Origin: Dehalococcoidia bacterium
Lineage (GTDB): Bacteria; Chloroflexota; Dehalococcoidia; DSTF01; JALHUB01
Reading direction: 5' to 3'
NCBI GenBank assembly: GCA_034430455.1
Contig: DAOUEO010000140.1
Coordinates: forward strand, 1-41,471
DNA length: 41,471 bases
A model generated the notes under the pieces. That model worked only from the letters and a program-made list of their open reading frames with translations. It did not search any database and was not told the origin of the DNA. Position 1 is the first letter of the stretch. Every line of letters begins with the position of its first letter. Positions 11,799-38,029 of the stretch are shown in pieces. The translations under genes were made by a program, and so were the position numbers.

Positions 11799-11936
11799 CA
11801 GGGAATCACACAGCGACGCCGCTGGGGCCTCCCGGCGGTGTCCTCTCTCCGGGGCAGCGGTTGCCGGCTGGACTCGCGGCCCTGACGGCGGCTCTGGGGA
11901 GACAAAGGAACCGTGGGGAGGAAAGGACATGACACG

Positions 11937-14657
<2,721 letters not shown>

Positions 14658-14832: not shown

Positions 14833-17241
14833 ATGAAGTCCGGGGGTGCCGCTATGACAGCAAGGCGGGGGACAGCCAAGCCGATCGCCCTATCGGATAA
14901 CGCGCGGGTGGTGCTGGAACGGCGCTACCTGGCCAAGGACAGGCGCGGTCGCGTCGTCGAGACGCCGGAGCAACTCTTCCGGCGGGTGGCCCGCGCCGTC
15001 GCCCAGGCGGAGACGGAGCACGGCGCCAAGCCAGCGGAGACGGCGGCGTGGGAGAAACGCTTCTACGAACTGATGACCGGCCTCCGCTTCCTCCCCAACT
15101 CGCCTACCCTGGGGAACGCCGGCCGCCCCCTGCAGCAGCTCGCCGCCTGCTTCGTCCTGCCGGTGAACGACTCGATGGGGGAGATCTTCGGCGCCGTCCG
15201 CGACATGGCCGTGATCCACAAGAGCGGCGGCGGGACAGGCTTCTCGTTCAGCCGCCTGCGCCCTGCCGGGGACCAGGTGCGGAGCACGGCCGGATTGGCG
15301 AGCGGTCCGGTCTCTTTCCTCAAGGTGTTCGACGCGGCGACGGAGGCGATCAAGCAGGGCGGGAGACGGCGTGGCGCCAACATGGCGATCCTCGCCGTCG
15401 ACCACCCCGACATCGAGGGGTTCATCGGCGCCAAGGCGGACATGGTATCCCTCACCAACTTCAACATCTCGGTGGCGGCAAACGAGCGCTTCATGGCGGC
15501 GGTGGAGGGGGACGAGGAGTACGCGCTGCTGAACCCCCGCACGCGGCGGCCGGTGGGACGGCGGCGGGCGCGGGAGGTGTTCCGCCTGATCGTGGAGAAC
15601 GCCTGGCAAAACGGCGACCCCGGCCTCGTCTTCATCGACCGCGTGAACAGGGACAACCCCACACCCCACCTGGGCGCGATCGAGGCGACGAACCCCTGCG
15701 GCGAGCAGCCGCTCCTGCCCTACGAGTCGTGCAACCTGGGCTCGCTGAACCTGTCGCGGTTCGTGAAGGAGGGCGCGGCGCCAGCGCGACGGAAGACGAA
15801 GGAGACGGCGGCGAAGGCTGTCGACTGGGAAGGTCTGGCGTCGGCGATCCCCGTCTGCGTGCGCTTCCTGGACAACGTCATCGACGTTAACCGATACCCG
15901 ATCCCTCAGATCGAGGAGATGACGAAGAGGACGCGCAAGATCGGGCTGGGGGTGATGGGCTGGGCCGACCTCCTGTTCCAGCTCGGCATCCCCTACAACT
16001 CCGAGGAGGCGCTGCGTCTGGGCGAGCGCATGATGGCGTTCATCCAGGAGAAGGCCGATGAGGCGTCGGAGCGGCTGGCGGATGAGCGCGGCGTCTTCCC
16101 CGCCTGGGAGGGCAGCGTCTACGCCGCGAAGGGCCGCGGCCAGCGGCGGCTGCGCAACTCGACCCGCACGACGGTGGCGCCGACGGGGACGCTGTCGATA
16201 ATCGCCGACTGCTCGGGCGGGACCGAGCCGGTCTTCGCCCTGGCGTTCACCCGGCAGCACTATCTCGACCCCAAGCGGCCGCAGACGGTCACCCGGCTCA
16301 GGGAGGTCAACAAGCGCTTCGAGCGGGCGGCTAGAGAGGGCGGTTTCCACTCCCAGGAGTTGCTCGACGCGCTGGCGGCCGGCGGCAGCCTTCAGGATCA
16401 GGCGGCGGCGCCGGAGTGGGCGAAGAGGCTCTTCGTGACGGCGCACGACGTGTCGCCGGAGTGGCACGTGCGCATGCAGGCGGCGTTCCAGCGGCACACC
16501 GATAACGCCGTGAGCAAGACGATCAACTTCCCCCACGACGCCACGCCCGAAGACGTGGAGAAGGCGTACCTGCTGGCCTACCACGAGGGGTGCAAGGGGA
16601 TCACGATCTACCGCGACCTGTCACGGGAGATGCAGGTGCTCTCCCACGCCACCGTCCGCGGCCCCGAGCAGGCGGAGGCGGTCGCCGCCGAGCGGGCGCT
16701 GGGGCCCCCGGCGCCGGCGCGGCGACCGGGCGAGCCCTACCGGCGGCGTCTGCCCGACGAGAGGGAGTCGATCACACACAAGTTCCGGGTGGGCGACCAG
16801 GAGGGCTACGTAACGGTGGGTCTGTACGAGGACGGGAACCCGGGCGAGGTGTTCGTAACCATCTCGAAGGAGGGGTCGACGATACGGGGGCTGATGGACT
16901 CGGTGGCGGTGCTGACGTCGCTGGCGCTGCAGTACGGCGTCCCTGTCGACGACCTGGCGCGGAAGTTCAGCGGCGTCCGCTTCGAGCCGCACGGCTTCAC
17001 GAACGACCCGGACCTGCCGCAGGCGACGTCGATCGTCGACTACATATTCCGCTGGCTCTCGGAGAGGTTCGGCGCGGAGGCGAGGGCGCGGCCGCGGCGG
17101 CGACGGCGGCCCCACAAGGTCAGCCTGCCTTCGAAGGGGGACATCAGCACGGGGGTAGCGTGTCCGGAGTGCGGGTCGGTGATGGTGTTCGCGGAGGGGT
17201 GCCTGTTGTGCCGGTCGTGTGGGTATGAGAAGTGCGGCTAG
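14833..17241 (+). CDS. nrdJ: Class II (adenosylcobalamin-dependent) ribonucleotide reductase, second paralog
   Basis: Has LSDNARVVLERRYL at the N-terminus, LAACFVLPVND, NPCGEQPLLPYESCNLGSLNL and DNAVSKTINFP. The C-terminal block is RRLPDERESITHKFRVGDQEGYVTVGLYEDGNPGEVF, and the tail is CPECG...CLLCRSCG. The start could be ATG 14833 or ATG 14854. Confidence 0.9.
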   Translation: MKSGGAAMTARRGTAKPIALSDNARVVLERRYLAKDRRGRVVETPEQLFRRVARAVAQAETEHGAKPAETAAWEKRFYELMTGLRFLPNSPTLGNAGRPLQQLAACFVLPVNDSMGEIFGAVRDMAVIHKSGGGTGFSFSRLRPAGDQVRSTAGLASGPVSFLKVFDAATEAIKQGGRRRGANMAILAVDHPDIEGFIGAKADMVSLTNFNISVAANERFMAAVEGDEEYALLNPRTRRPVGRRRAREVFRLIVENAWQNGDPGLVFIDRVNRDNPTPHLGAIEATNPCGEQPLLPYESCNLGSLNLSRFVKEGAAPARRKTKETAAKAVDWEGLASAIPVCVRFLDNVIDVNRYPIPQIEEMTKRTRKIGLGVMGWADLLFQLGIPYNSEEALRLGERMMAFIQEKADEASERLADERGVFPAWEGSVYAAKGRGQRRLRNSTRTTVAPTGTLSIIADCSGGTEPVFALAFTRQHYLDPKRPQTVTRLREVNKRFERAAREGGFHSQELLDALAAGGSLQDQAAAPEWAKRLFVTAHDVSPEWHVRMQAAFQRHTDNAVSKTINFPHDATPEDVEKAYLLAYHEGCKGITIYRDLSREMQVLSHATVRGPEQAEAVAAERALGPPAPARRPGEPYRRRLPDERESITHKFRVGDQEGYVTVGLYEDGNPGEVFVTISKEGSTIRGLMDSVAVLTSLALQYGVPVDDLARKFSGVRFEPHGFTNDPDLPQATSIVDYIFRWLSERFGAEARARPRRRRRPHKVSLPSKGDISTGVACPECGSVMVFAEGCLLCRSCGYEKCG

Positions 17242-24054: not shown

Positions 24055-24895
24055 GGCCGACTTCCACAGTCACACCAACGCCTCTGACGGCCGTCTCACG
24101 CCGACGGAGCTAGTCGACCTGGCGGCGAGGATGGGGGTAACGGTGCTCGCCGTCACGGACCATGACTCGACGGAGGGGCTGGCAGCGGCGCAGGCCGCGG
24201 CCGCCAAGCACCCCGGCTTCATGCTGATCCCCGGGATCGAGATGAGCACGGATATCCCCGGCGCCGAGGTGCACATCCTGGGCTACTTCCTGGCGTACGA
24301 AGACACGGAGTTCCAGCAGACGCTCGCCAATCTCCGTCACGCGCGCCGCGACAGGGGCCGGATGATGGTGGAGAAGCTGCGCCGCCTGGGCCTGGAGATA
24401 CTCTGGGAACGGGTAGAGGAGCTCGCCGGTGAGGGGGCGGTGGGGCGGCCCCACGTCGCTCAGGCGCTGTTGGAGAAAGGCTATATCTCCTCGTTTCAGG
24501 AGGCCTTCGACCGCTACATCGGCAGAAACGGCCCCGCCTACGCGGAGAGGCTGAAGCTGACACCGGTCGAGGCGATCGGGATTCTGGCGCGGGTGGGCGC
24601 CCTGACGGTGCTCGCCCACCCGGCGACCCTGTCGGGACTGGACGAGTTGATCAGGGAGCTCAAGGCGGCCGGCCTGGCGGGTATGGAGGTCTACTATCAG
24701 GACTACGATAAGGCGACGAGAGACCGTCTGGCGAAGATGGCGGACCGGTACGGTCTCCTGAAGCTCGGCGGCAGCGACTACCACGGCCTGGGGGGCAGCC
24801 ACGAGCGTATGCCCGGCGACATCCCCCTGCCCGACCAGGAGATCGACGCCTTCCTGGAGCGGGCCCGCGAGGCGACCCCCCTTCTCGGCTCCTAG
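24044..24895 (+). CDS. PHP-domain phosphoesterase (TrpH/YciV-like)
   Basis: ADFHSHTNASDGRLTPTELVDLAARMGVTVLAVTDHDSTEG, later LAHP and GGSDYHG motifs. The start overlaps the ymdB end by 11 nt. Confidence 0.8.
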   Translation: MTSRADFHSHTNASDGRLTPTELVDLAARMGVTVLAVTDHDSTEGLAAAQAAAAKHPGFMLIPGIEMSTDIPGAEVHILGYFLAYEDTEFQQTLANLRHARRDRGRMMVEKLRRLGLEILWERVEELAGEGAVGRPHVAQALLEKGYISSFQEAFDRYIGRNGPAYAERLKLTPVEAIGILARVGALTVLAHPATLSGLDELIRELKAAGLAGMEVYYQDYDKATRDRLAKMADRYGLLKLGGSDYHGLGGSHERMPGDIPLPDQEIDAFLERAREATPLLGS

Positions 24896-24930
24896 GATCC
24901 CCTGTTGATACTCGCCCGAGGCGCTCCCGA

Positions 24931-25584
24931 TCAGGGAGGCGTATAGTAGATGTTTACGGCTACCCAGTCGAGGTAGTAGTCGCGGCTATCGCACTCGGCG
25001 CCGCCTGAGCAGTTGCAGGTCACGCGAAGCCGGAAGTTGGCGTTGCTCAACTCACCCTCAGCCCAGAGTCTGCCCCAGATATCGGCGACCCCTCCCAGGA
25101 CAGCCGTATGCTCGCTGCTGGTCTCGGTAGGATCGACCTTGGCGGCCGTCCAGGAGGAACCGCCGTCCCACGAGAGCTCGACGCCGAGGCTGTTTTCGCC
25201 GCCGACGCCGCCCAGCCACCAGTCGAGGCGCACGCGAATGCCGTCGATGGTGGAGCCGGAGGGAATGGAGATGCCATAGTTGTAGAAGAGGTGACGGTCT
25301 CCAGGACCGTCCATGTTGGAGGCGTACAGCGGGCCGTCACCGTAGGCGTAGGTGGGGTTCAGCTCAAAGCCGTCGTTGTCGCCGCCGCTGGTCGCCGCCT
25401 GCGCGGAGGCGTCGAGGTAGCCGGTGTTGGCGAAGGAGGGGGCGGACGTGAATGAGTTGTCGAGGTTGCCGCTCTGGGCAATGTAGAAACCAAAGCCCGT
25501 GCTGACGGCAAACCCCGCCAGCGCCGACGCCGCCAGCACGAGGAGAAGGCCGCTGGCAATCTTGATTCGATTGGACATCCTCAC
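24931..25584 (-). CDS. Secreted/anchored protein of unknown family, paralog B (last gene of the SipW operon)
   Basis: N-terminal hydrophobic segment followed by F..Q.GNLDNSFTSA, which resembles a SipW-type signal. About half of the C-terminal 170 aa is identical to the upstream paralog. Strong GC3 bias. ATG 25578 (after GGGAGTGAGG) is an alternative start. Confidence 0.7.
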   Translation of the reverse strand: MRMSNRIKIASGLLLVLAASALAGFAVSTGFGFYIAQSGNLDNSFTSAPSFANTGYLDASAQAATSGGDNDGFELNPTYAYGDGPLYASNMDGPGDRHLFYNYGISIPSGSTIDGIRVRLDWWLGGVGGENSLGVELSWDGGSSWTAAKVDPTETSSEHTAVLGGVADIWGRLWAEGELSNANFRLRVTCNCSGGAECDSRDYYLDWVAVNIYYTPP

Positions 25585-25647
25585 TCCCAGCCGGTACGAA
25601 TACGCCGCGGGCCTCCACTGCCGCGAGCGCCGCGGGGCACTGCCCCG

Positions 25648-26292
25648 CTAGGACGGCCCGTAGTAGACGCTCACCGGCACCCAGTCCAGGTAGAAGTCAC
25701 GGCCGCCGCAGGCGCCGCCGGAGCAGTCGCAGGTCAGACGGACCCTGAAGTTGGCGTTGGCAAGCTCGTCTACGGTCCAGGTCCTGCCCCAGGTGTCGCT
25801 GCTGCTACCCAGGATCGCTGTGTGCTCCGACGTCGTCTCCGTAGGATCCGTTTGGGCGGCCGTCCAGGTTGCGCCGCCGTCCCAGGAGAGCTCGACAGAC
25901 ATGCTGTTAGAGTTGGCGCCGCTGTCGAGCCACCAGTCGAGGCGCACGGCAATACCCTCGATGGCGCAACTGCTCTTGATGGACATGTTGTAGTTGTAGT
26001 AGCGGTGGCGGTCGCCGGGGCCGTTGATGTTGCTGGCGTAGCCGCTCCCGTCGCTGTAGGCATTCTGGGGACTGGATTCGAAGCCGTTGTTGTCGCCGCC
26101 GCTGTCCGCTGCGTTGGCGGAGGGATTGAGGAAAGCGGTGTTCCCGGGGAAGCAGTCAACGCTGGTGATGGTACTGCCGATGTTGATCTTCTGGCCGCCA
26201 AGAAGGGCGAGACCGCTGTCGACCATCAGTGTGGCCAGTCCTGATAGCGCCACGAGAGCGGCAATGAGCAGCGTCCCTGCCTTGATCAGCAT
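25648..26292 (-). CDS. Secreted/anchored protein of unknown family, paralog A
   Basis: N-terminal hydrophobic helix. Shares blocks with paralog B (SGGDN.GFE, GPGDRH.YYNY, VRLDWWL, VELSWDGG..WTAA, NANFR.R.TC.CSGG, YLDWV.V..YY.P). ATG overlaps the sipW stop (ATGCTGA). Confidence 0.7.
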   Translation of the reverse strand: MLIKAGTLLIAALVALSGLATLMVDSGLALLGGQKINIGSTITSVDCFPGNTAFLNPSANAADSGGDNNGFESSPQNAYSDGSGYASNINGPGDRHRYYNYNMSIKSSCAIEGIAVRLDWWLDSGANSNSMSVELSWDGGATWTAAQTDPTETTSEHTAILGSSSDTWGRTWTVDELANANFRVRLTCDCSGGACGGRDFYLDWVPVSVYYGPS

Positions 26293-26858
26293 TCCGGTTC
26301 CTCTCCTGCCTGAAAACGTCGGGCTTTGCCTAGCCAGACTTGCCCCAGGAGGACGCCCAGGAGGAGGAGTGACGGAATGAGGATGAGAAGAAGCCGCCCC
26401 AGGGCGCCGCGGGCGAAGTGAACGAGGTAGCCGAGATAGGGAATGGCAAAGACCACGCGGTCCCCCGATCCTTCGAGGGTGACGGGGGCGGGATCAGGGG
26501 AGCTGTTGCTGTCGCCCTTGGTGGTGTAGACCGTGGTGCCGCCGACGCTCTCCATGTCCGTAATGCGATGGAGCACGGGGAGGGCTCTTCCTGCCTTCCT
26601 GATGGCGACGATGTCGCCCTCCTTGAGGGTCTTGCTGTCGACGGTCTCGGTGATGCCGACGCTGCCGGCGGGAAGGGCGGAGCCCATGCTGCCGCCGTAG
26701 ATGACGTAGGCCCGGAAGCCGAACAGGGTGAAGAGGGCGGGGATGGCGAGCGCGATGACCAGGAGCAGGAGCAGCCCAAGACACGCCGAACCGGCGAAGC
26801 GCACCATTCGTCCTGGTGGCAACGCCGGGAGGCGCTCTATCGGGAACCAGCTCGGCAT
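26286..26858 (-). CDS. sipW: Signal peptidase I, SipW/archaeal-ER type (S26 family)
   Basis: TM helix, then the Ser motif YGGSMGSALPAGS, the His motif PVLHRITD and KGDSNSSPD, plus a C-terminal TM helix. This is the pattern of ER-type/SipW peptidases, which lack the Lys of LepB-type enzymes. The start may be the internal MVRFAGS. Confidence 0.8.
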   Translation of the reverse strand: MPSWFPIERLPALPPGRMVRFAGSACLGLLLLLVIALAIPALFTLFGFRAYVIYGGSMGSALPAGSVGITETVDSKTLKEGDIVAIRKAGRALPVLHRITDMESVGGTTVYTTKGDSNSSPDPAPVTLEGSGDRVVFAIPYLGYLVHFARGALGRLLLILIPSLLLLGVLLGQVWLGKARRFQAGEEPEC

Positions 26859-26894
26859 CCTTACACTCCAGCTCCCTTGCCCGCAGCGTTGGCG

Positions 26895-27446
26895 CTACGG
26901 GTTGTTCTTAGTCTGCTCGGCGTCGAAGGTGAATGTAGCGGTCGTGCTGGCACCTTCGGGGCCGGTTGCGCTGGACGGCAGCTCTACCTTGAAGCACAGG
27001 TCCTCGCTGCCGCTGACGGCGAGCGTCCGGTCGCCTGAGTCATCGCCAGGGGTAGAATCGCCCATGGCGCCGTTGGCGAGTGTTCCGGTGTAGAGCTCAG
27101 ACCCGTCGAAGGTCGTGCAGTCGGTGCCCAGCGTCTTTATCGTGAGCGTCAGGGCATCCCTAAGATCCAGAGTGTCGTCGTTGGTCGCGCTGGTGGTCAT
27201 GGCGTAGCGCAGCTCAAGGGTGCCGGTGTTGGAGACTGTAAGCTGGGCGGTAACGGAGTCGCCCGGCGCCATGTTGCTCATCGTGAGAAAGGCGGTGGCC
27301 GGGGTGGTGCTAATATCGACGCTGCCGGAGGTGAAAGCGTTGGCGTCGTTGTCCGTGCTTGCAGTGAACAGTGACAGCCCCCCCAGGCCCAGCAAGCTGG
27401 CAAGAATGCCGATGGCCAAAAGGCTGAGAAGAATGCGTCTGTACAT
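26895..27446 (-). CDS. TasA/camelysin (peptidase M73)-like secreted protein with SipW-type signal peptide
   Basis: N-terminus ...LLGLGGLSLFTASTDNDANAFTSGSVDIS parallels the B. subtilis TasA signal region (...LVGGGTWAAFND....ATFASGTLDLS). The body is a Thr/Ser-rich beta-type sequence. It lies directly upstream of sipW. Confidence 0.75.
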   Translation of the reverse strand: MYRRILLSLLAIGILASLLGLGGLSLFTASTDNDANAFTSGSVDISTTPATAFLTMSNMAPGDSVTAQLTVSNTGTLELRYAMTTSATNDDTLDLRDALTLTIKTLGTDCTTFDGSELYTGTLANGAMGDSTPGDDSGDRTLAVSGSEDLCFKVELPSSATGPEGASTTATFTFDAEQTKNNP

Positions 27447-27806
27447 CTTGACATCCCTCCTCTCGAGGGCTTTGCGGCCGACCGTCCCCGGCCTACGAGG
27501 CCAGGGACAGCGGGCTGGCGATCCCGTCAGATACCTCTGGCGGCCGAACGCCGTCCCTGCCGGGCTCTTCGCGTAGGTCTGCCGGCACCCCCCCCTTCCT
27601 TGTCGAGATGCCTCCGTCGGCGGACTACGCCGGAGGAGATACGCCCTTGGGCATACGCCTCCTGATATACAGTATCGGCAGGGGCAGCGGTCTCTTAAGG
27701 GAGTGAGCCCATCAGTTATCCGAGATAGGGGCGGTGTGATAACCTAGAATCAGGGGAAGGGATCGGTCACGGGGCAGAGGGGCCAGAGAGGAGCGGGAAG
27801 ACTCCC

Positions 27807-28295
27807 GTGAAGTGCGCAACACACCCGAACGTCGAGACAGAGCTGGCTTGCAGCCGCTGCGGCAAGCCGATCTGCCCGCGTTGCCTGGTGTACACGCCGG
27901 TCGGCACCCGCTGTCGCGACTGCGCCCAGGTGCGACGCCTGCCAACCTATCAGGTCCCAGCATCATACCTGCTGCGCGGGATCGGCGCGGCGGCGGCGGC
28001 GGGAGCGGCGACCGGCGGGCTGTGGGCTCTCCTACTGCCTCAGAGGGCCGGCGCCTACGGCTTCTACGTCCTCTTCCTGGCGCTGGGGATAGGCTACGCC
28101 GTCGGCGAGGCGGTGAGCTGGGCGACCAACCGGAAGCGGGGCGCGGTGCTCCAGGGGATAGCGGCGGCGGGGGTCGTCCTCGCTTACCTTGTGCACAACC
28201 TGGCAGCGGGGGTGGGCATCATCCCCCGCGACGACATCTACGGCTACGTGATGACGGGCATCGCCATCGTCATAGCGATAGGGCGGCTCCGCTGA
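27807..28295 (+). CDS. Membrane protein with N-terminal B-box-like zinc ribbon
   Basis: CATHP...CSRCGKPICPRCLV....GTRCRDC has eight Cys/His ligand positions, followed by about four hydrophobic helices. GTG start. Divergent from the TasA-like operon. Confidence 0.65.
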   Translation: MKCATHPNVETELACSRCGKPICPRCLVYTPVGTRCRDCAQVRRLPTYQVPASYLLRGIGAAAAAGAATGGLWALLLPQRAGAYGFYVLFLALGIGYAVGEAVSWATNRKRGAVLQGIAAAGVVLAYLVHNLAAGVGIIPRDDIYGYVMTGIAIVIAIGRLR

Positions 28296-28377: not shown

Positions 28378-28644
28378 TCAGCGGAGGACGAAGGAGACCA
28401 CCACCAGGAGGGCGAAGACCCCGACGCCTACGAGGACTATCCGGCGCAGGTCGTTCTTCACGTAGCTGAAGTCCATCATCCCCGGCACTCTCGGCTTGGG
28501 AGCGGGCTGCTCCTCACCCTTGAGCGGCGAAGCGAGAGGGGCGACCCGCGGCCGGGCAGCGAGCGGCGGTGGGGACGCAGGGGCACGGCGGCGGGCCTTC
28601 CGGCGGGACGGGCGACTGGCGCTGGGGCGTGGTTGCTTGGGCAA
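28378..28644 (-). CDS. Small tail-anchored membrane protein (Pro/Arg-rich N-terminus); start uncertain
   Basis: GC3-biased frame ending in a clear TM helix (IVLVGVGVFALLVVVSFVL). TTG 28644 or the internal ATG-ATG (MMDFSYVKNDL) are possible starts. Confidence 0.4.
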   Translation of the reverse strand: MPKQPRPSASRPSRRKARRRAPASPPPLAARPRVAPLASPLKGEEQPAPKPRVPGMMDFSYVKNDLRRIVLVGVGVFALLVVVSFVLR

Positions 28645-29422: not shown

Positions 29423-29499
29423 TGGCGCGCTCGGCGGGATTCGAACCCACGGCCTCAGCCTCCGCAGGGCTGCGCTCTATCCGACTGAGCTACGAGCGC
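29423..29499 (-). tRNA. tRNA-Arg, anticodon GCG as read
   Basis: The reverse complement folds as GCGCTCG-TA-GCTC-AGTCGGATA-GAGC-G-CAGCC-CTGCGGA-GGCTG-AGGCC-GTGGG-TTCGAAT-CCCGC-CGAGCGC-G-CCA. The cloverleaf is complete, CCA is encoded and A20 is present. Confidence 0.85.
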
Positions 29500-29580
29500 G
29501 CGCTATCCACACATAAGACTGGGGATGAGACGCGGGGTGCGGGGTCCGGCGCGCCATCCCCCGTCCGGGGTCATCCTGGT

Positions 29581-29666
29581 TGGTGCCGAAGGTGGGATTT
29601 GAACCCACACGCCCTTACGGACACTACGCCCTGAACGTAGCGCGTCTGCCATTCCGCCACTTCGGC
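29581..29666 (-). tRNA. tRNA-Leu (CAG)
   Basis: Reverse complement GCCGAAG-TG-GCGGAATGGCAGACGC-...CTACG-TTCAGGG-CGTAG, a long variable arm, TGTGGG-TTCAAAT-CCCAC, CTTCGGC-A-CCA. Confidence 0.9.
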
Positions 29667-29700
29667 GAACCGCGACCGTTTGCAGGCTCAAGCGCAAGGA

Positions 29701-29777
29701 TGGTGGGCGGTACAGGGCTCGAACCTGTGACCTCTTCCGTGTGAAGGAAGCGCTCATACCAACTGAGCTAACCGCCC
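29701..29777 (-). tRNA. tRNA-Val (CAC)
   Basis: Reverse complement GGGCGGT-TA-GCTC-AGTTGGTAT-GAGC-G-CTTCC-TTCACAC-GGAAG-AGGTC-ACAGG-TTCGAGC-CCTGT-ACCGCCC-A-CCA. Confidence 0.9.
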
Positions 29778-31345: not shown

Positions 31346-31420
31346 TGGTGGCAGCGGAGGGATTTGAACCCACGACCAAGGGCTTATGAGTCCCCTGCTC
31401 TACCACTGAGCTACGCTGCC
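31346..31420 (-). tRNA. tRNA with CAU anticodon (elongator Met or lysidine-type Ile2; identity not resolved)
   Basis: Reverse complement GGCAGCG-TA-GCTC-AGTGGTA-GAGC-A-GGGGA-CTCATAA-GCCCT-TGGTC-GTGGG-TTCAAAT-CCCTC-CGCTGCC-A-CCA. There is one A-G mismatch at the base of the anticodon stem and one U-U mismatch in the T stem. Confidence 0.75.
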
Positions 31421-32808: not shown

Positions 32809-33648
32809 ATGCAGTGGGTCTTCCTCAACGGACGGATCATTGAAAGGGAGAGGGCCGCCATCCCGGCCCTCGACCGCGGCCTGCTCCACGCCTACGGCCT
32901 GTTCGAGACGATGCGCTCCTACAACGGGCGCGTCTTCCGCCTCGACGCCCACTACCGCCGCCTGTGTGAGGGGGCAGAGGCCCTCAGCCTCACCCTGAAC
33001 CTCAACCTTGATGAGATCGCCGCCGCCGTCGAGACGCTGCTGGAGAGGAACAGCCTCCCCGACGCCCGCATCCGCCTGACCGTCACCGCCGGCCCCGAGA
33101 ACGGCGAAAGGCAGGTCCTGCTCGTCGCCACCCCGCCTACCGACTACCCGCCGGAGCTCTACGAGAGGGGCATGGCCACCGTTACGAGCGCTACCCGTCG
33201 CAATGAGACTTCACCGCTGAGCCGCATCAAGTCGCTCAACTGCCTGGACAACATCCTGGCGCGCGAGGATGCCCGCCGCCAAGGTGCCGACCACGCGATA
33301 CTGCTCAACACGCGGGGCTTCGTCGCGGAGGGGAACTCAAGCAACGTCTTCCTGGCCCAAGGCGATCGGCTGCTGACGCCGGGCATCGATTCGGGCGTCC
33401 TGCCGGGGATAACGCGGGCCGCCGTCATCGAGCTGGCGCAGGAGGCCGGCACCGCCTGCCTAGAAGGCGAGGTCGAGGCGGCGATGCTCGACGACGCAAA
33501 GGAGGCGTTTCTCACCGGCTCGGTCATGGGGATCATGCCGCTTACCCGGCTCGACGGCCGCCCCATCGGCAGCGGCGGGCCCGGCCCCACGACCTTGGCG
33601 ATCAGCCGCCTCTATGATCAGGCGGTGGCGCGGGAGACGCGGAGATAA
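32809..33648 (+). CDS. pabC: Aminodeoxychorismate lyase / class IV aminotransferase-fold protein
   Basis: Fold-type IV pattern (DRGLLHAYGLFETMR, IKSLNCLDNILA, GNSSNVF, GVLPGITR). The pabC call rests on adjacency to pabB. A branched-chain or D-amino-acid aminotransferase cannot be excluded. Confidence 0.65.
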   Translation: MQWVFLNGRIIERERAAIPALDRGLLHAYGLFETMRSYNGRVFRLDAHYRRLCEGAEALSLTLNLNLDEIAAAVETLLERNSLPDARIRLTVTAGPENGERQVLLVATPPTDYPPELYERGMATVTSATRRNETSPLSRIKSLNCLDNILAREDARRQGADHAILLNTRGFVAEGNSSNVFLAQGDRLLTPGIDSGVLPGITRAAVIELAQEAGTACLEGEVEAAMLDDAKEAFLTGSVMGIMPLTRLDGRPIGSGGPGPTTLAISRLYDQAVARETRR

Positions 33649-33700
33649 GGCAGGCCGCCAACGCCGGTACGGGGTGTCTCATTGGGCCGCTGGCGTTGGC

Positions 33701-34312
33701 CTAGAACGCGTAGTCCGTCTTCCAGATCTCCCAGACCCTGCCGGCGGTGCGAATAGTCTCCTTCTCCTCTTTGAGAGTAGGCCTCCCCGGCTGCCAGCCG
33801 GAGGGGGTCAACTCGCCGGTGGAGCGGACGTGCTGGAAGGCCTTGAGCTGCCGAATGAGCTCAGTTACGTTGCGACCCACGGGCGGCGTCAGTATCTCCG
33901 CTGCCTGGATGATGCCGTCAGGGTCAATTATGAAGCGGCCACGCACGTTGACGCCGAGCTCCTCGTTGTACACCCCGTACAGGGATCCGATCTTGCCTCC
34001 GGGGTCGGCCAGCATGGCGTAGGGGACACCCCCCTCCACCATCTTCGAAAGCTCCACCTCCTGCCAGACCTTGTGGGAGTAGACACTGTCCACACTCACC
34101 GAGAGCACCTCCGCCTCCATCGCCCTCAACTCGCCATACTTGACGGCAACTGCCGCCAACTCGGTCGGTCAGACGCAGGTGAAGTCAGCGGGATAGAAGC
34201 AGAGGATCACCCACTTCTTCTTGAGGTTGGAGAGTTTGACCTCCTGGACCTTGCCATTCCAGTAGGCCTTGGCTGTGAAGTCTGGTGCTTGCTTGCCAAC
34301 GATCGGCGTCAT
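33701..34312 (-). CDS. Peroxiredoxin (AhpC/Prx1 type) with in-frame TGA at the peroxidatic position; candidate selenocysteine-containing Prx
   Basis: ATG 34312 (RBS AAGGAGGG) reads MTPIVGKQAPDFTAKAYWNGKVQEVKLSNLKKKWVILCFYPADFTCV. TGA at 34171-34169 follows, then PTELAAVAVKYGE... continues in the same frame to the stop at 33701. The ORF track reports only the part after the TGA (33701..34159). Confidence 0.75.
34140..34159 (-). promoter_or_regulatory. SECIS-like hairpin downstream of the in-frame UGA
   Basis: The minus-strand RNA forms UUGGCGGC-AGUU-GCCGUCAA, an 8-bp stem (one G-U pair) with a 4-nt loop containing G. The stem starts 9 nt after UGA. Confidence 0.5.
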
Positions 34313-34368
34313 TGCGCCCTCCTTTCGCTAGGCCGGTCGTACGTGCGGCCCCTGCCAGAATGGAAATG

Positions 34369-34397
34369 ATCGTAGCAAGGGGGTTCTGGCCTGTCAA
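34369..34397 (-). promoter_or_regulatory. Candidate peroxiredoxin promoter
   Basis: On the minus strand: TTGACA (34397-34392), 17-bp spacer, TACGAT (34374-34369), about 55 nt upstream of the ATG. Confidence 0.45.
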
Positions 34398-34439
34398 CCA
34401 GAGGAGAGAATACAGAGCGAACGCCTCTGCCTCACCTCC

Positions 34440-34506
34440 CGCTTGAGGGGCCGACTTCGCGCGGTCTACAATGGAATCGCGATGACGAAGACACGCTTCG
34501 CCGCCC
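34440..34506 (+). repeat. Direct repeat copy A: duplicated uvrC promoter plus first 8 codons (uvrC' remnant)
   Basis: 66 of 67 positions are identical to 35380-35446 (single t/c difference at 34457/35397). It contains TTGAGG-18 bp-TACAAT and ATGACGAAGACACGCTTCGCCGCC. Degenerate similarity (ctgcccg, cccggcg) continues to about 34530. Confidence 0.9.
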
Positions 34507-34569
34507 TGCCCGAGCCGATTCCGCCCGGCGGCGGGTTGGGCCTCAGCGACCGGAAAGGACCAAAGGAAC

Positions 34570-35310
34570 ATGAAACTTCTTAGCTGGCAGGCTGCTCTTG
34601 GACTGGCTCTACTTGCGTTGTCGGTGCTGGTGTACGCGCTGCACTACGCGATATTCAGAGACTCGCATCACATCTTCATCTACCTGATCGGCGATGTCGC
34701 TTTCGTGTTCATCGAGGTTCTCCTGGTCACTCTGATAATCCATGAGTTGCTCAATGTCAGAGAAAAGCAGAGCCGGCTGGAGAAGTTGAATATGGTCATA
34801 GGCGCCTTCTTCAGCGAACTTGGAACGGAGCTGCTGGCCTACTTCTCGGACCTCGACCCCAAGCTGAACCAGATCAGGGAGCAGCTCATCGTGGACAACG
34901 AGTGGTCGAATGAGGAGTTCGCCAGCGTCAGTCAGCGGCTGAGGAAATACGACTACGGCGTGGAGATCGAAACAGCGAACTGGGGAAATCTGAGCAGCTA
35001 CCTCATTGAGAAAAGGGGCTTCCTGCTGAGGCTGCTGGAGAACCCGACTCTGCTGGAACATGAGTCCTTCACAGAGCTCCTTCGCGCCGTCTTCCACCTG
35101 ACTGAGGAGCTGGCAAGAAGGGAGAACCTCGGGGAGCTGCCCGACACCGACCGTAGACATCTTGCCAACGACATCACGAGGGCATACGTCCTGCTCGTGC
35201 GACAGTGGCTGGACTATATGCACCACCTGAGAGACAACTACCCCTACCTCTTCTCCCTCGCCATGAGGACGAACCCATTTGACCAACAAGCGTCGGTGAT
35301 AGTGCGTTAG
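34570..35310 (+). CDS. Hypothetical two-TM membrane protein with helical cytoplasmic domain; compositionally foreign
   Basis: 246-aa ORF starting at ATG with AAGGA 4 nt upstream. Two N-terminal hydrophobic helices are followed by a charged helical domain. Hand-counted GC is 53% and 45% in two 60-nt samples, against 72% in the adjacent uvrC sample. Confidence 0.7.
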   Translation: MKLLSWQAALGLALLALSVLVYALHYAIFRDSHHIFIYLIGDVAFVFIEVLLVTLIIHELLNVREKQSRLEKLNMVIGAFFSELGTELLAYFSDLDPKLNQIREQLIVDNEWSNEEFASVSQRLRKYDYGVEIETANWGNLSSYLIEKRGFLLRLLENPTLLEHESFTELLRAVFHLTEELARRENLGELPDTDRRHLANDITRAYVLLVRQWLDYMHHLRDNYPYLFSLAMRTNPFDQQASVIVR

Positions 35311-35379
35311 TGCGTTTGAGCGCAAGAGACAGCCCGCCGGTGCGCGCGGCAGCCCCCACGGCTGGCGAAGGGCCCCGCT

Positions 35380-35446
35380 CGCTTGAGGGGCCGACTCCGC
35401 GCGGTCTACAATGGAATCGCGATGACGAAGACACGCTTCGCCGCCC
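35380..35446 (+). repeat. Direct repeat copy B: functional uvrC promoter and start
   Basis: Partner of 34440-34506. TTGAGG 35383-35388, TACAAT 35407-35412, uvrC ATG at 35422. Confidence 0.9.
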
Positions 35447-37269
35447 AGCTCGCCGCCCTGCCCGCTCGACCCGGCGTCTACATCATGCGCGACGGCGAGG
35501 GCCGCGTCATCTACGTCGGGAAGGCGGCCAACCTGCACAGCCGGGTGCGCTCCTACTTCGGCTCGCCCCGCAGCATGGAGCCGAAGACGCGGGCGCTCGC
35601 GTCCGCCGTCGCCGATTTCGAGTACATCGTCACCAATACGAGCCAGGAGGCGCTGCACCTGGAGGCGACCCTGGTCAAGCGCCATCAGCCCCTCTTCAAC
35701 GTCCGCCTCAAGGACGACAAGCACTATCCCTACCTCCGGATCGACGTGCAGAACTCCTGGCCGCGGGCCGAGATCACCCGCCGCGTGGCCGACGACGGCG
35801 CCCGCTACTTCGGGCCCTACGCGAGCGCGGGGTCGGTGCGCAAGGTGCTCGATCTCATCAACCGGCTCTTCCCCTGCCGCGCCTGCACGAAGACGATAAG
35901 CGGCCAGGACCGGCGCCCCTGCCTCGATTTCTACCTCCACCGCTGCCTCGCTCCCTGCGCCTCCTACTGCAGCAAGGAGGAGTACGACGAGATGATCCGG
36001 CAGGCGATCCTCTTCCTCGAGGGGCGGACGGACACGGTCGTGCGGGAGATCAGAGCGCAGATGGAGGCGGCATCGGAGAGCCTCCAGTTCGAGCGGGCGG
36101 CGCGGCTGCGCGACCAGCTCCAGGCGATCGAAAGGGTCACCGAGCGGCAGGTGACGGCCTACGCCACGCCCAGCGATGAGGATGTCTTCGGCCTCGCCCG
36201 CGCCGACGGGGATGTGTGGGCGCAGGTGCTGTTCATCCGGGGGACGAAGATGACCGGCGGCGACCACTTCGCGCTGGACGGCGCAGGCGACGAGCCCGAC
36301 GCCGAGGTGATGAACAGCTTCCTGAAGCAGTTCTACGAGTCGGCGACCTACGTGCCGCGGAGAGTGCTGCTGCCGGTCGCGGTCCCCGAGCAGGCGCTGA
36401 TCGAGGAGTGGCTGTCGGAGCGGCGCGGCGGCCGCGTGAGCCTGCTCGTCCCCCGGCGCGGGAACAAGCGGCATCTGGTGGCGATGGCCGCCGACAACGC
36501 CCGCGAGGCGCTGGAGATGATGCGGGTGAAGTGGCTGGCGGACAGCGGCAAGACGCAGCGGGCGCTGGCCGAGCTGCAAGAAGAGCTGAACCTGCCGTCG
36601 CTGCCGCGGCGGATCGAGTGCTACGACATCTCGGACATCAGCGGGACGGCCGCCGTGGGGAGCATGGTGGTGTTCAGCGACGGCCATCCGCGGCGGGCGG
36701 AGTACCGTCGCTTCCGGATCAAGACGGTGGAAGGGGCGAACGACGTGGCGATGATGGCGGAGGTGCTGCGGCGTCGCTTCAAGCGGGCGGCGCGGCGCGA
36801 GCCCGGCGGAGAGGAGCCGGACGAGAAGGGGCAGGCCTGGGCTGCCCTGCCCGACCTGGTGCTGATCGACGGCGGGAGGCCGCAGCTCAACGCCGCCCTC
36901 GACGCGCTTCGGGAGATGGAGGTGCCGTTCCTGCCGGCGGCGGGGCTGGCGAAGCAGCAGGAGGAGCTGTATGTGAAGGACGTGGCGGAGCCGATCGTCC
37001 TGCCGCGGACGTCGCCGGCGCTGTACCTGCTGCAGCGGGTGCGGGACGAGGCGCACCGCTTCGCTATCACATACCATCGCAAGGTGCGGGAGAAGGCGGG
37101 GACGAGGTCGGCGCTCGACTCGATACCGGGCGTGGGGCCGAAGCGGAAGCGGGCGCTGCTGCGGAAGTTCGGGTCCGTGAAGAGGATACGGGAGGCGGCG
37201 GTGGACGAGATCGCGGCGACGGTGGGGTTCACGCGCTCGCTGGCCGAAAGGGTCAAGGAGTACCTGTAG
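35422..37269 (+). CDS. uvrC: Excinuclease ABC subunit C
   Basis: GIY-YIG start (PGVYIMRDGEGRVIYVGKAANL..RV.SYF), a UVR domain (QFERAARLRDQLQAI), an endonuclease domain and a C-terminal (HhH)2 (IPGVGPKRKRALLRKFGS). ATG 35422 lies only about 10 nt after the TACAAT box. Confidence 0.9.
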   Translation: MTKTRFAAQLAALPARPGVYIMRDGEGRVIYVGKAANLHSRVRSYFGSPRSMEPKTRALASAVADFEYIVTNTSQEALHLEATLVKRHQPLFNVRLKDDKHYPYLRIDVQNSWPRAEITRRVADDGARYFGPYASAGSVRKVLDLINRLFPCRACTKTISGQDRRPCLDFYLHRCLAPCASYCSKEEYDEMIRQAILFLEGRTDTVVREIRAQMEAASESLQFERAARLRDQLQAIERVTERQVTAYATPSDEDVFGLARADGDVWAQVLFIRGTKMTGGDHFALDGAGDEPDAEVMNSFLKQFYESATYVPRRVLLPVAVPEQALIEEWLSERRGGRVSLLVPRRGNKRHLVAMAADNAREALEMMRVKWLADSGKTQRALAELQEELNLPSLPRRIECYDISDISGTAAVGSMVVFSDGHPRRAEYRRFRIKTVEGANDVAMMAEVLRRRFKRAARREPGGEEPDEKGQAWAALPDLVLIDGGRPQLNAALDALREMEVPFLPAAGLAKQQEELYVKDVAEPIVLPRTSPALYLLQRVRDEAHRFAITYHRKVREKAGTRSALDSIPGVGPKRKRALLRKFGSVKRIREAAVDEIAATVGFTRSLAERVKEYL

Positions 37270-38029
37270 GGGACACCCCTCCGGACTCCCCCTCGATTCC
37301 AAGGAGAGAGACCAGCGTCTTCGCGTTGGCGACGGCGTGCCCGAGGGCGTCGTTGTTGAAGTAGACGTACACCTCCCGCACGTCCTCCGGCAGCCCGCGC
37401 AGACGGCTCGCCCAGTCCGCCAACTGCTCGTCGCTGTAAGAGCCACCGTAGAGGGCGGCGCTGCCGTGAAAGCGCACGTAGACGAAGTCGGTCGTCGCCT
37501 CCAGCGGCGTCTCCCGCTCCACCATGTGGTAGACGCAGAAGGCTACGTTGTGCATCCGGAGGAGGGCGAACGGCTCGGCGTCGAACCAGGAATCGTGGCG
37601 GAATTCGAAGACGTGGCGCACGTCGTGGGGCAGTAGCGAGAGGAAATGGGCCAGGCGCTCGCTGTTCTCCGGCGTGCGATGAAAGCTGGGCGGCATCTGA
37701 TAGAGGACGGGGCCCAGGGCGTCGCCGAGGAGGCGGGCGCGGTCGAGGAACGTCTCCAGCGGCTCCTCGCAGTCTTGCAGGCGCTTGATGTGGGTGATGA
37801 AGCGGCTGGCCTTGACGGCGAAGCGGAAGCCCTCCGGCACCTTCGCCGACCAGTTGCGCCAGGTCTGCTCCTTGGGCAGTCGATAGAAGCTGGCGTTGAG
37901 CTCGACGGTGGCGAAGTGGCGGCAGAAGTGGTCGAGCCACTTGGCGGCAGCCAGCTCCTGGGGGTAGAAGGGGCCCCGCCAGTGGCTGTAGACCCAACCG
38001 GACGTCCCTATCCAGTAGCGAGGGGGCAT
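37253..38029 (-). CDS. DUF72 (YecE-like) family protein
   Basis: IGTSGWVYSHWRGPFYP...FATVELNASFYRLP...FRFAVKASRFITH is the typical DUF72 N-terminal pattern. Convergent with uvrC, and the ends overlap by 17 nt. Confidence 0.85.
   Translation of the reverse strand: MPPRYWIGTSGWVYSHWRGPFYPQELAAAKWLDHFCRHFATVELNASFYRLPKEQTWRNWSAKVPEGFRFAVKASRFITHIKRLQDCEEPLETFLDRARLLGDALGPVLYQMPPSFHRTPENSERLAHFLSLLPHDVRHVFEFRHDSWFDAEPFALLRMHNVAFCVYHMVERETPLEATTDFVYVRFHGSAALYGGSYSDEQLADWASRLRGLPEDVREVYVYFNNDALGHAVANAKTLVSLLGIEGESGGVSPTGTP

Follow-up and report, generated by a model that had tools for sequence, protein, structure and literature searches.

A putative TasA-superfamily fibre operon of a Dehalococcoidia bacterium whose accessory proteins may place exchangeable heads at the fibre end

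Introduction

Donor-strand fibres of the TasA type are an emerging cross-domain biofilm-matrix strategy, known mostly from Bacillus and a few archaea. Here, we analysed a 41,471-nucleotide (nt) stretch of DNA from a Dehalococcoidia bacterium (Chloroflexota; contig DAOUEO010000140.1), referred to below as the window, whose minus strand carries at 24931-27446 four collinear open reading frames (ORFs), g1-g2-g3-g4. The locus poses two questions: whether these genes encode a fibre of this type and, if they do, what role is played by g3 and g4, two paralogous proteins encoded next to a TasA-like protein and a SipW-like signal peptidase. The answer that we favour, with a probability of roughly 0.6, is that the four genes form a donor-strand fibre operon of the TasA superfamily, with g3 and g4 as TapA-like initiators or caps that carry exchangeable binding heads.

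Organization of the operon

The operon is embedded in high-GC DNA (~67% GC). Its first gene, g1 (26895..27446), encodes a minimal TasA-like major subunit of 183 amino acids (aa), and g2 (26286..26858) encodes a SipW-type signal peptidase I of the endoplasmic reticulum (ER)/archaeal type (190 aa). These are followed by g3 (25648..26292, 214 aa) and g4 (24931..25578, 215 aa), which we call accessory subunits A and B. Each gene is preceded by a purine-rich ribosome-binding site. Gaps of 36 nt and ~69 nt separate g1 from g2 and g3 from g4, respectively, while the stop codon of g2 overlaps the start codon of g3 in the heptamer ATGCTGA (26286..26292), an arrangement that can be read directly from the DNA and that couples the two genes translationally. 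A sequence-only reading of the window had described the same gene order (TasA-like, SipW-like and two paralogs, on the minus strand) and the same overlap, and our ORFs agree with it in both respects.

The ORF of g4 spans 24931-25584, but the ATG at 25578, downstream of GGGAGTGAGG, is most likely the true start because public records hold exactly the resulting 215-aa sequence; residues of the g4 cleavage site are nevertheless given below in the 217-aa numbering of the longer ORF. All four proteins are present in public sequence collections, and g3 is identical to the public record P0067.

A TasA-like subunit and its signal peptidase

The assignment of g1 to the TasA/camelysin family, proposed from the sequence alone, is confirmed at the level of both sequence and model. 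g1 matches the Pfam family PF12389 (Peptidase_M73) with 38.4 bits, well above the cut-off of 22.5, and its homologues already carry a precomputed PF12389 match. Among PDB sequences, g1 matches TasA only (8aur/5of1), both on its own and as a profile of 50 homologues (profile E-value 2.4e-6). An AlphaFold2 (AF2) monomer model of g1 has a predicted local distance difference test (pLDDT) score of 83.6, and a Foldseek search of the PDB with this model returned the TasA fibre 8aur_A as the top match (E 1.4e-5), with the archaeal donor-strand fibres CanA and AbpA ranking below it. As modelled, g1 is a jelly-roll like TasA. The mature protein is predicted to be ~158 aa long and acidic (isoelectric point (pI) 4.05, 13.9% D+E), to contain no His and to carry two invariant Cys residues. 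The N-terminal stretch quoted earlier as similar to a SipW-cognate signal, GGLSLFTASTDNDANAFTSGSVDIS, is present in g1. TIGR04090 (SipW-dependent family) scores 18.5 bits against a cut-off of 60, and TIGR04088 (SipW-cognate signal class) is not among the NCBIfam matches at E<=1, in a release that may lack this model. No match to g1 was found in PHROGs.

The second gene fits the description of an ER-type, SipW-like peptidase equally well. g2 passes the TIGR02228 model of archaeal/ER-type signal peptidase I (79.9 bits, cut-off 51.85) and displays the Ser/His/Asp signature in the boxes GGS57M, H97-R98 (LHR) and G115-D116...D122 (GDxN), each of which is kept in at least 25 of 27 homologues. The spacing of S57, H97 and D116 equals that of Ser47, His87 and Asp106 in B. 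subtilis SipW. Two hydrophobic segments are present, one at the N-terminus and one at the C-terminus. Both proteins fall below the NCBI cut-offs for the equivalogs of B. subtilis TasA (g1 versus NF046066: 25.3 bits, cut-off 450) and SipW (g2 versus NF046067: 92.2 bits, cut-off 190), and are therefore members of these families and not orthologues. Considering the adjacency of the genes and the small-x-small sites in their products, g2 probably cleaves g1, g3 and g4.

A related locus, L086, contains a second SipW-like gene (L086:5631-6617) that adjoins an intact SipW gene (L086:6614-7537) and lacks all three catalytic positions: GGSMGP is replaced by GGTTTP, LHRI by FQRI and GDxN by DIQRD. Its product could be a pseudo-peptidase that partners the active enzyme.

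A shared N-terminal arm in the predicted mature proteins

The predicted donor-strand arm of g1 (aa 26-45, nt 27312..27371, minus strand; LFTASTDNDANAFTSGSVDI) follows the predicted cleavage site G23-L24-S25|L26. The same register is found in all three secreted proteins of the operon, which read GLS25|LFTASTDNDANAFTSG in g1, GFG32|FYIAQSGNLDNSFTSA in g4 (arm at nt 25441-25488, minus strand) and GLA29|LLGGQKINIGSTITSV in g3 (arm at aa 30-45, nt 26158-26205, minus strand). The N..F.S motif that had been noticed at the N-terminus of g4 takes the form N-x-F-T-S, and g3 carries a degenerate version of it, S-T-I-T-S. Orthologues of g3 retain the canonical arm, e.g. GLALFSDQANNAGSSLTS.

Expressed as a pattern, [GAS]x[GAS]|hydrophobic-aromatic-x8-NxFx[ST], the arm is matched in all 50 TasA-like proteins and in 33 of 65 proteins of the family defined by the C-terminal domain of g3 and g4 (the "head", see below), at a chance expectation of ~0.3% per shuffled sequence; most of the head-family proteins that miss the exact pattern are near-variants. 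Arm positions F2, N11, F13 and G16 are invariant in 50/50 g1 homologues. The agreement between TasA-like and head-family proteins extends beyond the pattern to T/S3, D/A4, N8, D/G9-10 and T/S14, and the two families part ways only past arm position 16.

The position of the arm corresponds to that of the donor strand of TasA; by cryo-EM, this strand comprises residues 28-38 and makes its key contacts through F29 and F39 (PMC9674648). A HMMER alignment places g1 residues 34-83 on the first residues of mature TasA, and F27 and F38 of g1 correspond to F29 and F39 of TasA. In the monomer model of g1 the arm is disordered (pLDDT <50 for residues 22-33). Furthermore, TapA of B. subtilis combines an Ig fold that is already complete with an N-terminus resembling this strand. 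By donating this N-terminus it initiates filaments, in which an end is the only place open to it, and its residues 44-57 alone suffice for fibre initiation (PMC10151520). Judged by its location within the predicted mature proteins and its correspondence to the TasA donor strand, the shared motif probably does more than act as a signal.

The occurrence of the arm is tightly linked to the rest of the operon. It is present in 18 of 20 head proteins that adjoin SipW/TasA genes and in 2 of 65 elsewhere (Fisher p ~3e-14), and these two matches comprise one at a contig edge and one false match. In addition, the arm of an accessory protein resembles the TasA arm of its own locus (16.4 BLOSUM units) more closely than those of other loci (7.1), a difference that none of 5,000 permutations reached.

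A jelly-roll head from a widespread family

g3 and g4 are 58% identical (E 4e-80), which bears out their earlier description as two paralogous secreted proteins, and they share one build: a signal peptide, the ~16-residue arm and a complete β-jelly-roll head. The head is predicted to occupy aa ~47-214 in g3 (nt 25651-26154, minus strand) and nt 24934-25437 (minus strand) in g4. The g4 model, with a pLDDT of 85.5 overall and >90 from residue 50 onward, consists of a signal helix, a disordered segment (residues 27-41, pLDDT <50) and a complete all-β jelly-roll.

Searches by sequence with g3 and g4 gave no NCBIfam, PHROG or PDB-sequence match and only noise in Pfam (E<=1), and no relatives of the head were found among PDB sequences with either a single sequence or the A1 profile. 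The supposition that the two paralogs are unrelated to TapA also holds, as no TapA match was obtained at E<=1 and the structural neighbours of the head are of the carbohydrate-binding module (CBM) type and not Ig domains. By Foldseek, the PDB neighbours of the g4 head include CBM16/4/32/6/22/35 (E 1e-4 to 1e-3, TMt 0.45-0.58) and MAM or prodomain sandwiches. The matches among predicted viral structures in BFVD are better than those in the PDB (TMq 0.65, root-mean-square deviation 2.8 Å), and the named ones are tail proteins, tail fibres and depolymerase-type proteins. Neither the two paralogs nor the head regions taken from 18 larger proteins matched a CBM family in Pfam. Weak matches of the Mo-co_dimer family (PF03404; E 0.007-0.09) recur over the stretch RLDWW...ELSWDGGxxW in the heads of g3 and g4, in P0099 and in L086:7724-9190; we rejected homology to this family and regard the stretch as probably a shared local β-sandwich motif.

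The head defines a large family for which no Pfam or NCBIfam model exists. An exhaustive profile search, clustered at 50% identity, yielded 5,962 clusters at E<=1e-3 and 2,308 at E<=1e-10. At least 373 reference-genome loci in Chloroflexota, Patescibacteria, Gammaproteobacteria (including Methylobacter marinus A45), Acidobacteriota and one Methanosarcinales archaeon encode it, and so do seven IMG/VR viral contigs of 21-49 kb (L090-L096), in which the head lies close to the N-terminus of ORFs of 757-1,685 aa. As these large viral ORFs have no PHROG functional assignment, the label "phage tail module" reflects structure only.

Most members are large secreted proteins that carry the head as a terminal module or in repeats. 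The partners of the head include M14 and S8 peptidases, esterase-like enzymes, CBM96, ConA-like, BACON, CARDB, VWA and SpaA domains and the pilin N-methylation motif, with which a ~1,000-aa head-bearing ORF begins at locus L013. P0108 (L003:5250-6236), P0120 and P0096 are fusions of the head with an N-terminal region that resembles archaellin/FlaF (PF01917, 24-29 bits), and no SipW or TasA gene lies nearby. A WxL-like tail also occurs. The archaellin (29.3 bits, cut-off 29.5) and WxL (21.5 bits, cut-off 25) matches in such fusions are just under the Pfam cut-offs and are thus suggestive only. Taken together, the distribution looks like that of a binding or attachment module, and the model of the head likewise resembles a CBM-like or phage-tail-like binding module.

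Conservation of the operon and exchange of the head

Conservation was examined in the 80 best genome loci of a survey seeded with the head and in six loci of a survey seeded with TasA. The order tasA-like, sipW, head protein is collinear in 17/80 head-seeded loci and in one further locus, L002, all of them in Chloroflexota, and several of these loci lie in neighbourhoods that are unrelated to that of the window. Each of the six TasA-seeded loci has an arm-bearing accessory gene beside tasA-sipW; four have the same head, one with a Pro/Thr linker and another with an Fn3-like domain and two heads. The spacing between arm and head varies, with Pro/Thr linkers or an extra domain in between.

In some relatives the head is replaced altogether. 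At the same syntenic slot in L084 (L084:6221-7237), the signal and the arm (GIGVSTDQAADSGNTMTTGS) are kept and the head consists of three DUF7483 repeats, which match the phage tail-fibre PHROG phrog_24898 (E 1.4e-29). At L089 the arm, GESGA|VFSGQAPVAANLFTTN, is carried by an unrelated 500-aa protein. Most relatives possess a single accessory gene, not two. The proposal that the four genes are co-conserved is thus correct as to co-conservation and incorrect as to the unit, which has three components, the head being replaceable by an unrelated domain. As far as sequences can tell, the rule of the accessory slot is a conserved arm combined with an exchangeable head, and because related loci join it to unrelated heads, the arm acts like a docking tag that is portable between proteins.

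A model of fibre assembly and the alternatives

We propose that g1, g3 and g4 are exported and that g2 would cut each of them after a small-x-small site, predicted at S25|L26 in g1, A29|L30 in g3 and G32|F33 in g4. Copies of mature g1, a minimal acidic jelly-roll, would then polymerise head to tail like TasA, each slotting its N-terminal strand into the subunit that comes next. The flexible ~16-residue arm of g3 or g4, mimicking the donor strand of g1, would occupy the acceptor groove on a g1 subunit and so start or cap the fibre at one end, where the head would be left dangling. By binding a glycan or another surface ligand, the head could tether this end of the fibre either to the producing cell, as an anchor, or to a substrate, as an adhesin. 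Thus, g3 and g4 may work in the manner of TapA, of whose family they are not members, an analogy suggested by (i) the SipW-type signal, (ii) the donor-strand-like N-terminus, (iii) the complete globular domain and (iv) the location beside sipW.

Several observations weigh against this model. The Pfam match is limited to the N-terminal third of g1, with an alignment that covers residues 13-87 only (profile positions 14-87 of 196), and the TM-scores of the g1 model against TasA are modest (TMq 0.48, TMt 0.39). The arm of g3, the first accessory gene, is the degenerate one, and its insertion, or that of the g4 arm, into the groove of g1 is proposed by analogy. The head resembles CBMs at the level of the fold only (TMt ~0.5, 8-15% identity) and its top PDB match is the BMP9 prodomain, so that glycan binding is a guess. 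No LPXTG motif, SLH domain or transmembrane segment that could serve as an anchoring device is present. A scan of 24700-28000 for promoter and terminator consensus sequences gave nothing that exceeded shuffled controls. Finally, the conservation of the arm and its co-variation within a locus are equally expected of a determinant of SipW recognition.

This last point leads to the most serious alternative, namely that g3 and g4 are secreted and stay free, for instance as matrix lectins or surface binders, with SipW as their common processing enzyme, that they never become part of the g1 fibre and that their motif serves SipW recognition or export. The adjacency of arm and SipW fits this proposal just as well as it fits ours, the head is a stand-alone, complete module on many proteins that have nothing to do with fibres, and TIGR04088 originally classed the motif as a "SipW-cognate" signal. 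However, the conserved N11-x-F13-T-S sits 11-15 residues past the predicted cleavage site, a distance over which type I signal peptidases usually do not read, and in TasA these positions make donor-strand contacts. The Pro/Thr linkers between arm and head, moreover, suit a tethered arm and hardly a spent remnant of a signal, and the equivalent 14 residues of TapA are enough for fibre initiation. Owing to these linkers and to the position of the conserved residues, and also to the disorder of the arms and the completeness of the head, we prefer docking to the fibre over a pure signal function and consider free secretion unlikely.

A second alternative places g3 and g4 along the fibre as minor subunits or cross-linkers, with the head, for example, accepting a strand or binding g1 laterally. 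Minor subunits are indeed encoded in B. cereus and in AbpX-type loci, two paralogs could fill two positions and tandem-head proteins exist. Yet the head has no sequence relation to the TasA fold family and is predicted with high confidence (pLDDT >90) as a jelly-roll that is complete without a partner strand, a fold which, by the logic of TapA, cannot sit within a donor-strand polymer. We therefore regard a position along the fibre as quite improbable. That g1 is a camelysin-type metalloprotease or a spore-coat component of an operon unrelated to fibres, as the Pfam name Peptidase_M73 and the JGI names "spore coat-associated protein N" and "Camelysin metallo-endopeptidase" would have it, is very hard to credit, since these names were inherited from early work on TasA and CalY, both now known to be fibre subunits, since a protein with zero His residues can have no HExxH-type zinc site, and since we know of no sporulation in Dehalococcoidia.

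The initiator or cap model can be taken one step further, to a claim that we consider tentative and rather doubtful: the arm would be a portable fibre-docking tag by means of which Chloroflexota exchange fibre-end heads like cassettes, and the commonest head would be a widespread, undescribed surface- or glycan-binding module that has been grafted onto the TasA donor strand, onto archaellin- or type IV pilin-like N-termini and onto large phage proteins. If this is true, the tip of the fibre is programmable in a largely uncultured phylum.

The leader and the neighbouring genes

The operon is preceded by a leader (27447..27700, minus strand) that is conserved among syntenic Dehalococcoidia loci and lies in a 360-nt intergenic region (27447-27806). 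An element at 27638-27700 comprises the invariant CCGATACT (27671-27678) followed by a hairpin, CGTATGCC-N4-GGCRTACG, that extends to ~27638, and a second hairpin-like block is found just 5′ of the g1 ribosome-binding site. A search of the 360-nt region for a riboswitch or another known RNA returned no Rfam match at gathering thresholds or at E<=10, and covariation analysed with RNAalifold gives no support to a structure of the leader. The element could combine a promoter with a regulator in the 5′ untranslated region.

Two further genes are conserved neighbours of the operon across the syntenic Dehalococcoidia loci. One (27807-28295, plus strand) encodes a B-box-like zinc-ribbon protein (Pfam zf-B_box, E 2e-4, below the cut-off) in which several segments are hydrophobic, and the product of the other (28378-28644, minus strand) is an 88-aa protein rich in Arg and Pro whose C-terminal part contains a hydrophobic segment. 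The zinc-ribbon membrane protein had been suggested as a linked regulator or anchor. Its gene was seen only alongside a complete RNase Y-YmdB-PHP...p88 block and is missing from six non-syntenic loci that have the fibre module elsewhere and for which the upstream sequence is available. We rejected the suggestion, as the gene travels with the wider synteny block only; the gene of the Arg/Pro-rich protein likewise has no link to the fibre module.

Elsewhere in the window, two adjacent genes on the plus strand (11913-14657 and 14833-17241) encode ribonucleotide reductase large subunits, each with a C-terminal TSCPD domain, one having a class II B12-type N-terminal domain and the other an all-α N domain. 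A row of four ORFs (33614-37364, plus strand; 251, 246, 289 and 382 aa) has no Pfam match at E<=1e-5, and the kilobase of lowest GC in the window (34001-35000, GC 0.579 versus ~0.67) falls here. A tRNA cluster, Arg(GCG)-Leu(CAG)-Val(CAC) (29423-29777, minus strand), and a tRNA-Met(CAT) (31346-31420, minus strand) flank a gene of the isocitrate/isopropylmalate dehydrogenase family, a label that derives from Iso_dh in the syntenic locus L001.

Comparison with known systems

The finding of such an operon outside Firmicutes, which the sequence-only reading had offered as news, has precedents. Homologues of PF12389 in Chloroflexota, Actinobacteriota, Patescibacteria and archaea were reported by Wang et al. 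in 2022 (PMC9245690), and loci of the TasA superfamily were described to encode a dedicated signal peptidase I (SPase I) and tip proteins "of different predicted structures" whose co-assembly by strand complementation was predicted (bioRxiv 10.64898/2026.01.04.697558). NCBI, furthermore, names close relatives of g1 "TasA family protein [Dehalococcoidia bacterium]". Since both the Chloroflexota homologues and the variable tip proteins have been published, the fibre system as such was already known. Our search of the literature found no description of the head family, of a conserved arm with swapped heads at a fixed slot, or of the minimal three-component Dehalococcoidia version, in which the gene order is inverted and the coupling of sipW to the accessory gene is kept.

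The closest parallel is tapA-sipW-tasA of B. subtilis. The two systems share (i) a major subunit that folds as a jelly-roll, belongs to one and the same Pfam family and bears a donor-strand motif at its N-terminus, (ii) a dedicated ER-type signal peptidase with Ser, His and Asp, and (iii) an accessory protein in which an N-terminus that mimics the donor strand precedes a complete, unrelated β-sandwich. In B. subtilis the stop codon of tapA overlaps the start codon of sipW (PMC10151520), and a stop/start overlap thus couples the accessory gene to sipW in both operons. In Dehalococcoidia, however, the order is inverted to tasA-sipW-accessory, two accessory paralogs are present in the operon described here, and the host belongs to Chloroflexota. 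Mature g1 (~158 aa) is much shorter than mature TasA (234 aa) and does not have its C-terminal extension, and the accessory head is a CBM-like jelly-roll, whereas that of TapA is a V-set Ig domain to which it bears no sequence relation.

The AbpX/AbpA/Tafi-type loci (bioRxiv 10.64898/2026.01.04.697558; PMC9245690) are similar in combining a donor-strand major subunit with a dedicated SPase I and variable accessory or tip proteins, and their subunits are likewise acidic (pI ~4), with an aromatic residue at mature position 2 and often an acidic one at position 4. They differ in that the AbpX-associated SPase is described with 10 transmembrane helices and a DUF5305 partner, while g2 has two hydrophobic segments like SipW, and in that g1 matches TasA directly by sequence.

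A binding head that is joined to the end of a fibre by strand complementation is found in the tip adhesins of chaperone-usher pili, such as FimH. There, the adhesin accepts a donor strand via its pilin domain, whereas the accessory protein proposed here would donate one. The two systems are not related by evolution and neither a chaperone nor an usher is encoded here; the host phylum is generally regarded as monoderm. The head itself is comparable to the modules of CBM4/6/16/22/32/35 and of phage tail and receptor-binding proteins in its β-jelly-roll fold and in its use as a terminal accessory of secreted enzymes and surface proteins. It shares with CBMs many conserved Trp and acidic residues, with W145, W170, W174 and W207 of g4 invariant, yet it belongs to no CBM or other Pfam family by sequence and its structural likeness is modest.

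Set beside these systems, the locus and its relatives represent a compact three-component version of the TasA-type fibre from the mostly uncultured Dehalococcoidia. The rule of a constant arm and an exchangeable head makes both the initiation of the fibre and its attachment target directly testable, and the head, whose ~6,000 sequence clusters come from bacteria, archaea and phages, is worth defining as a family.

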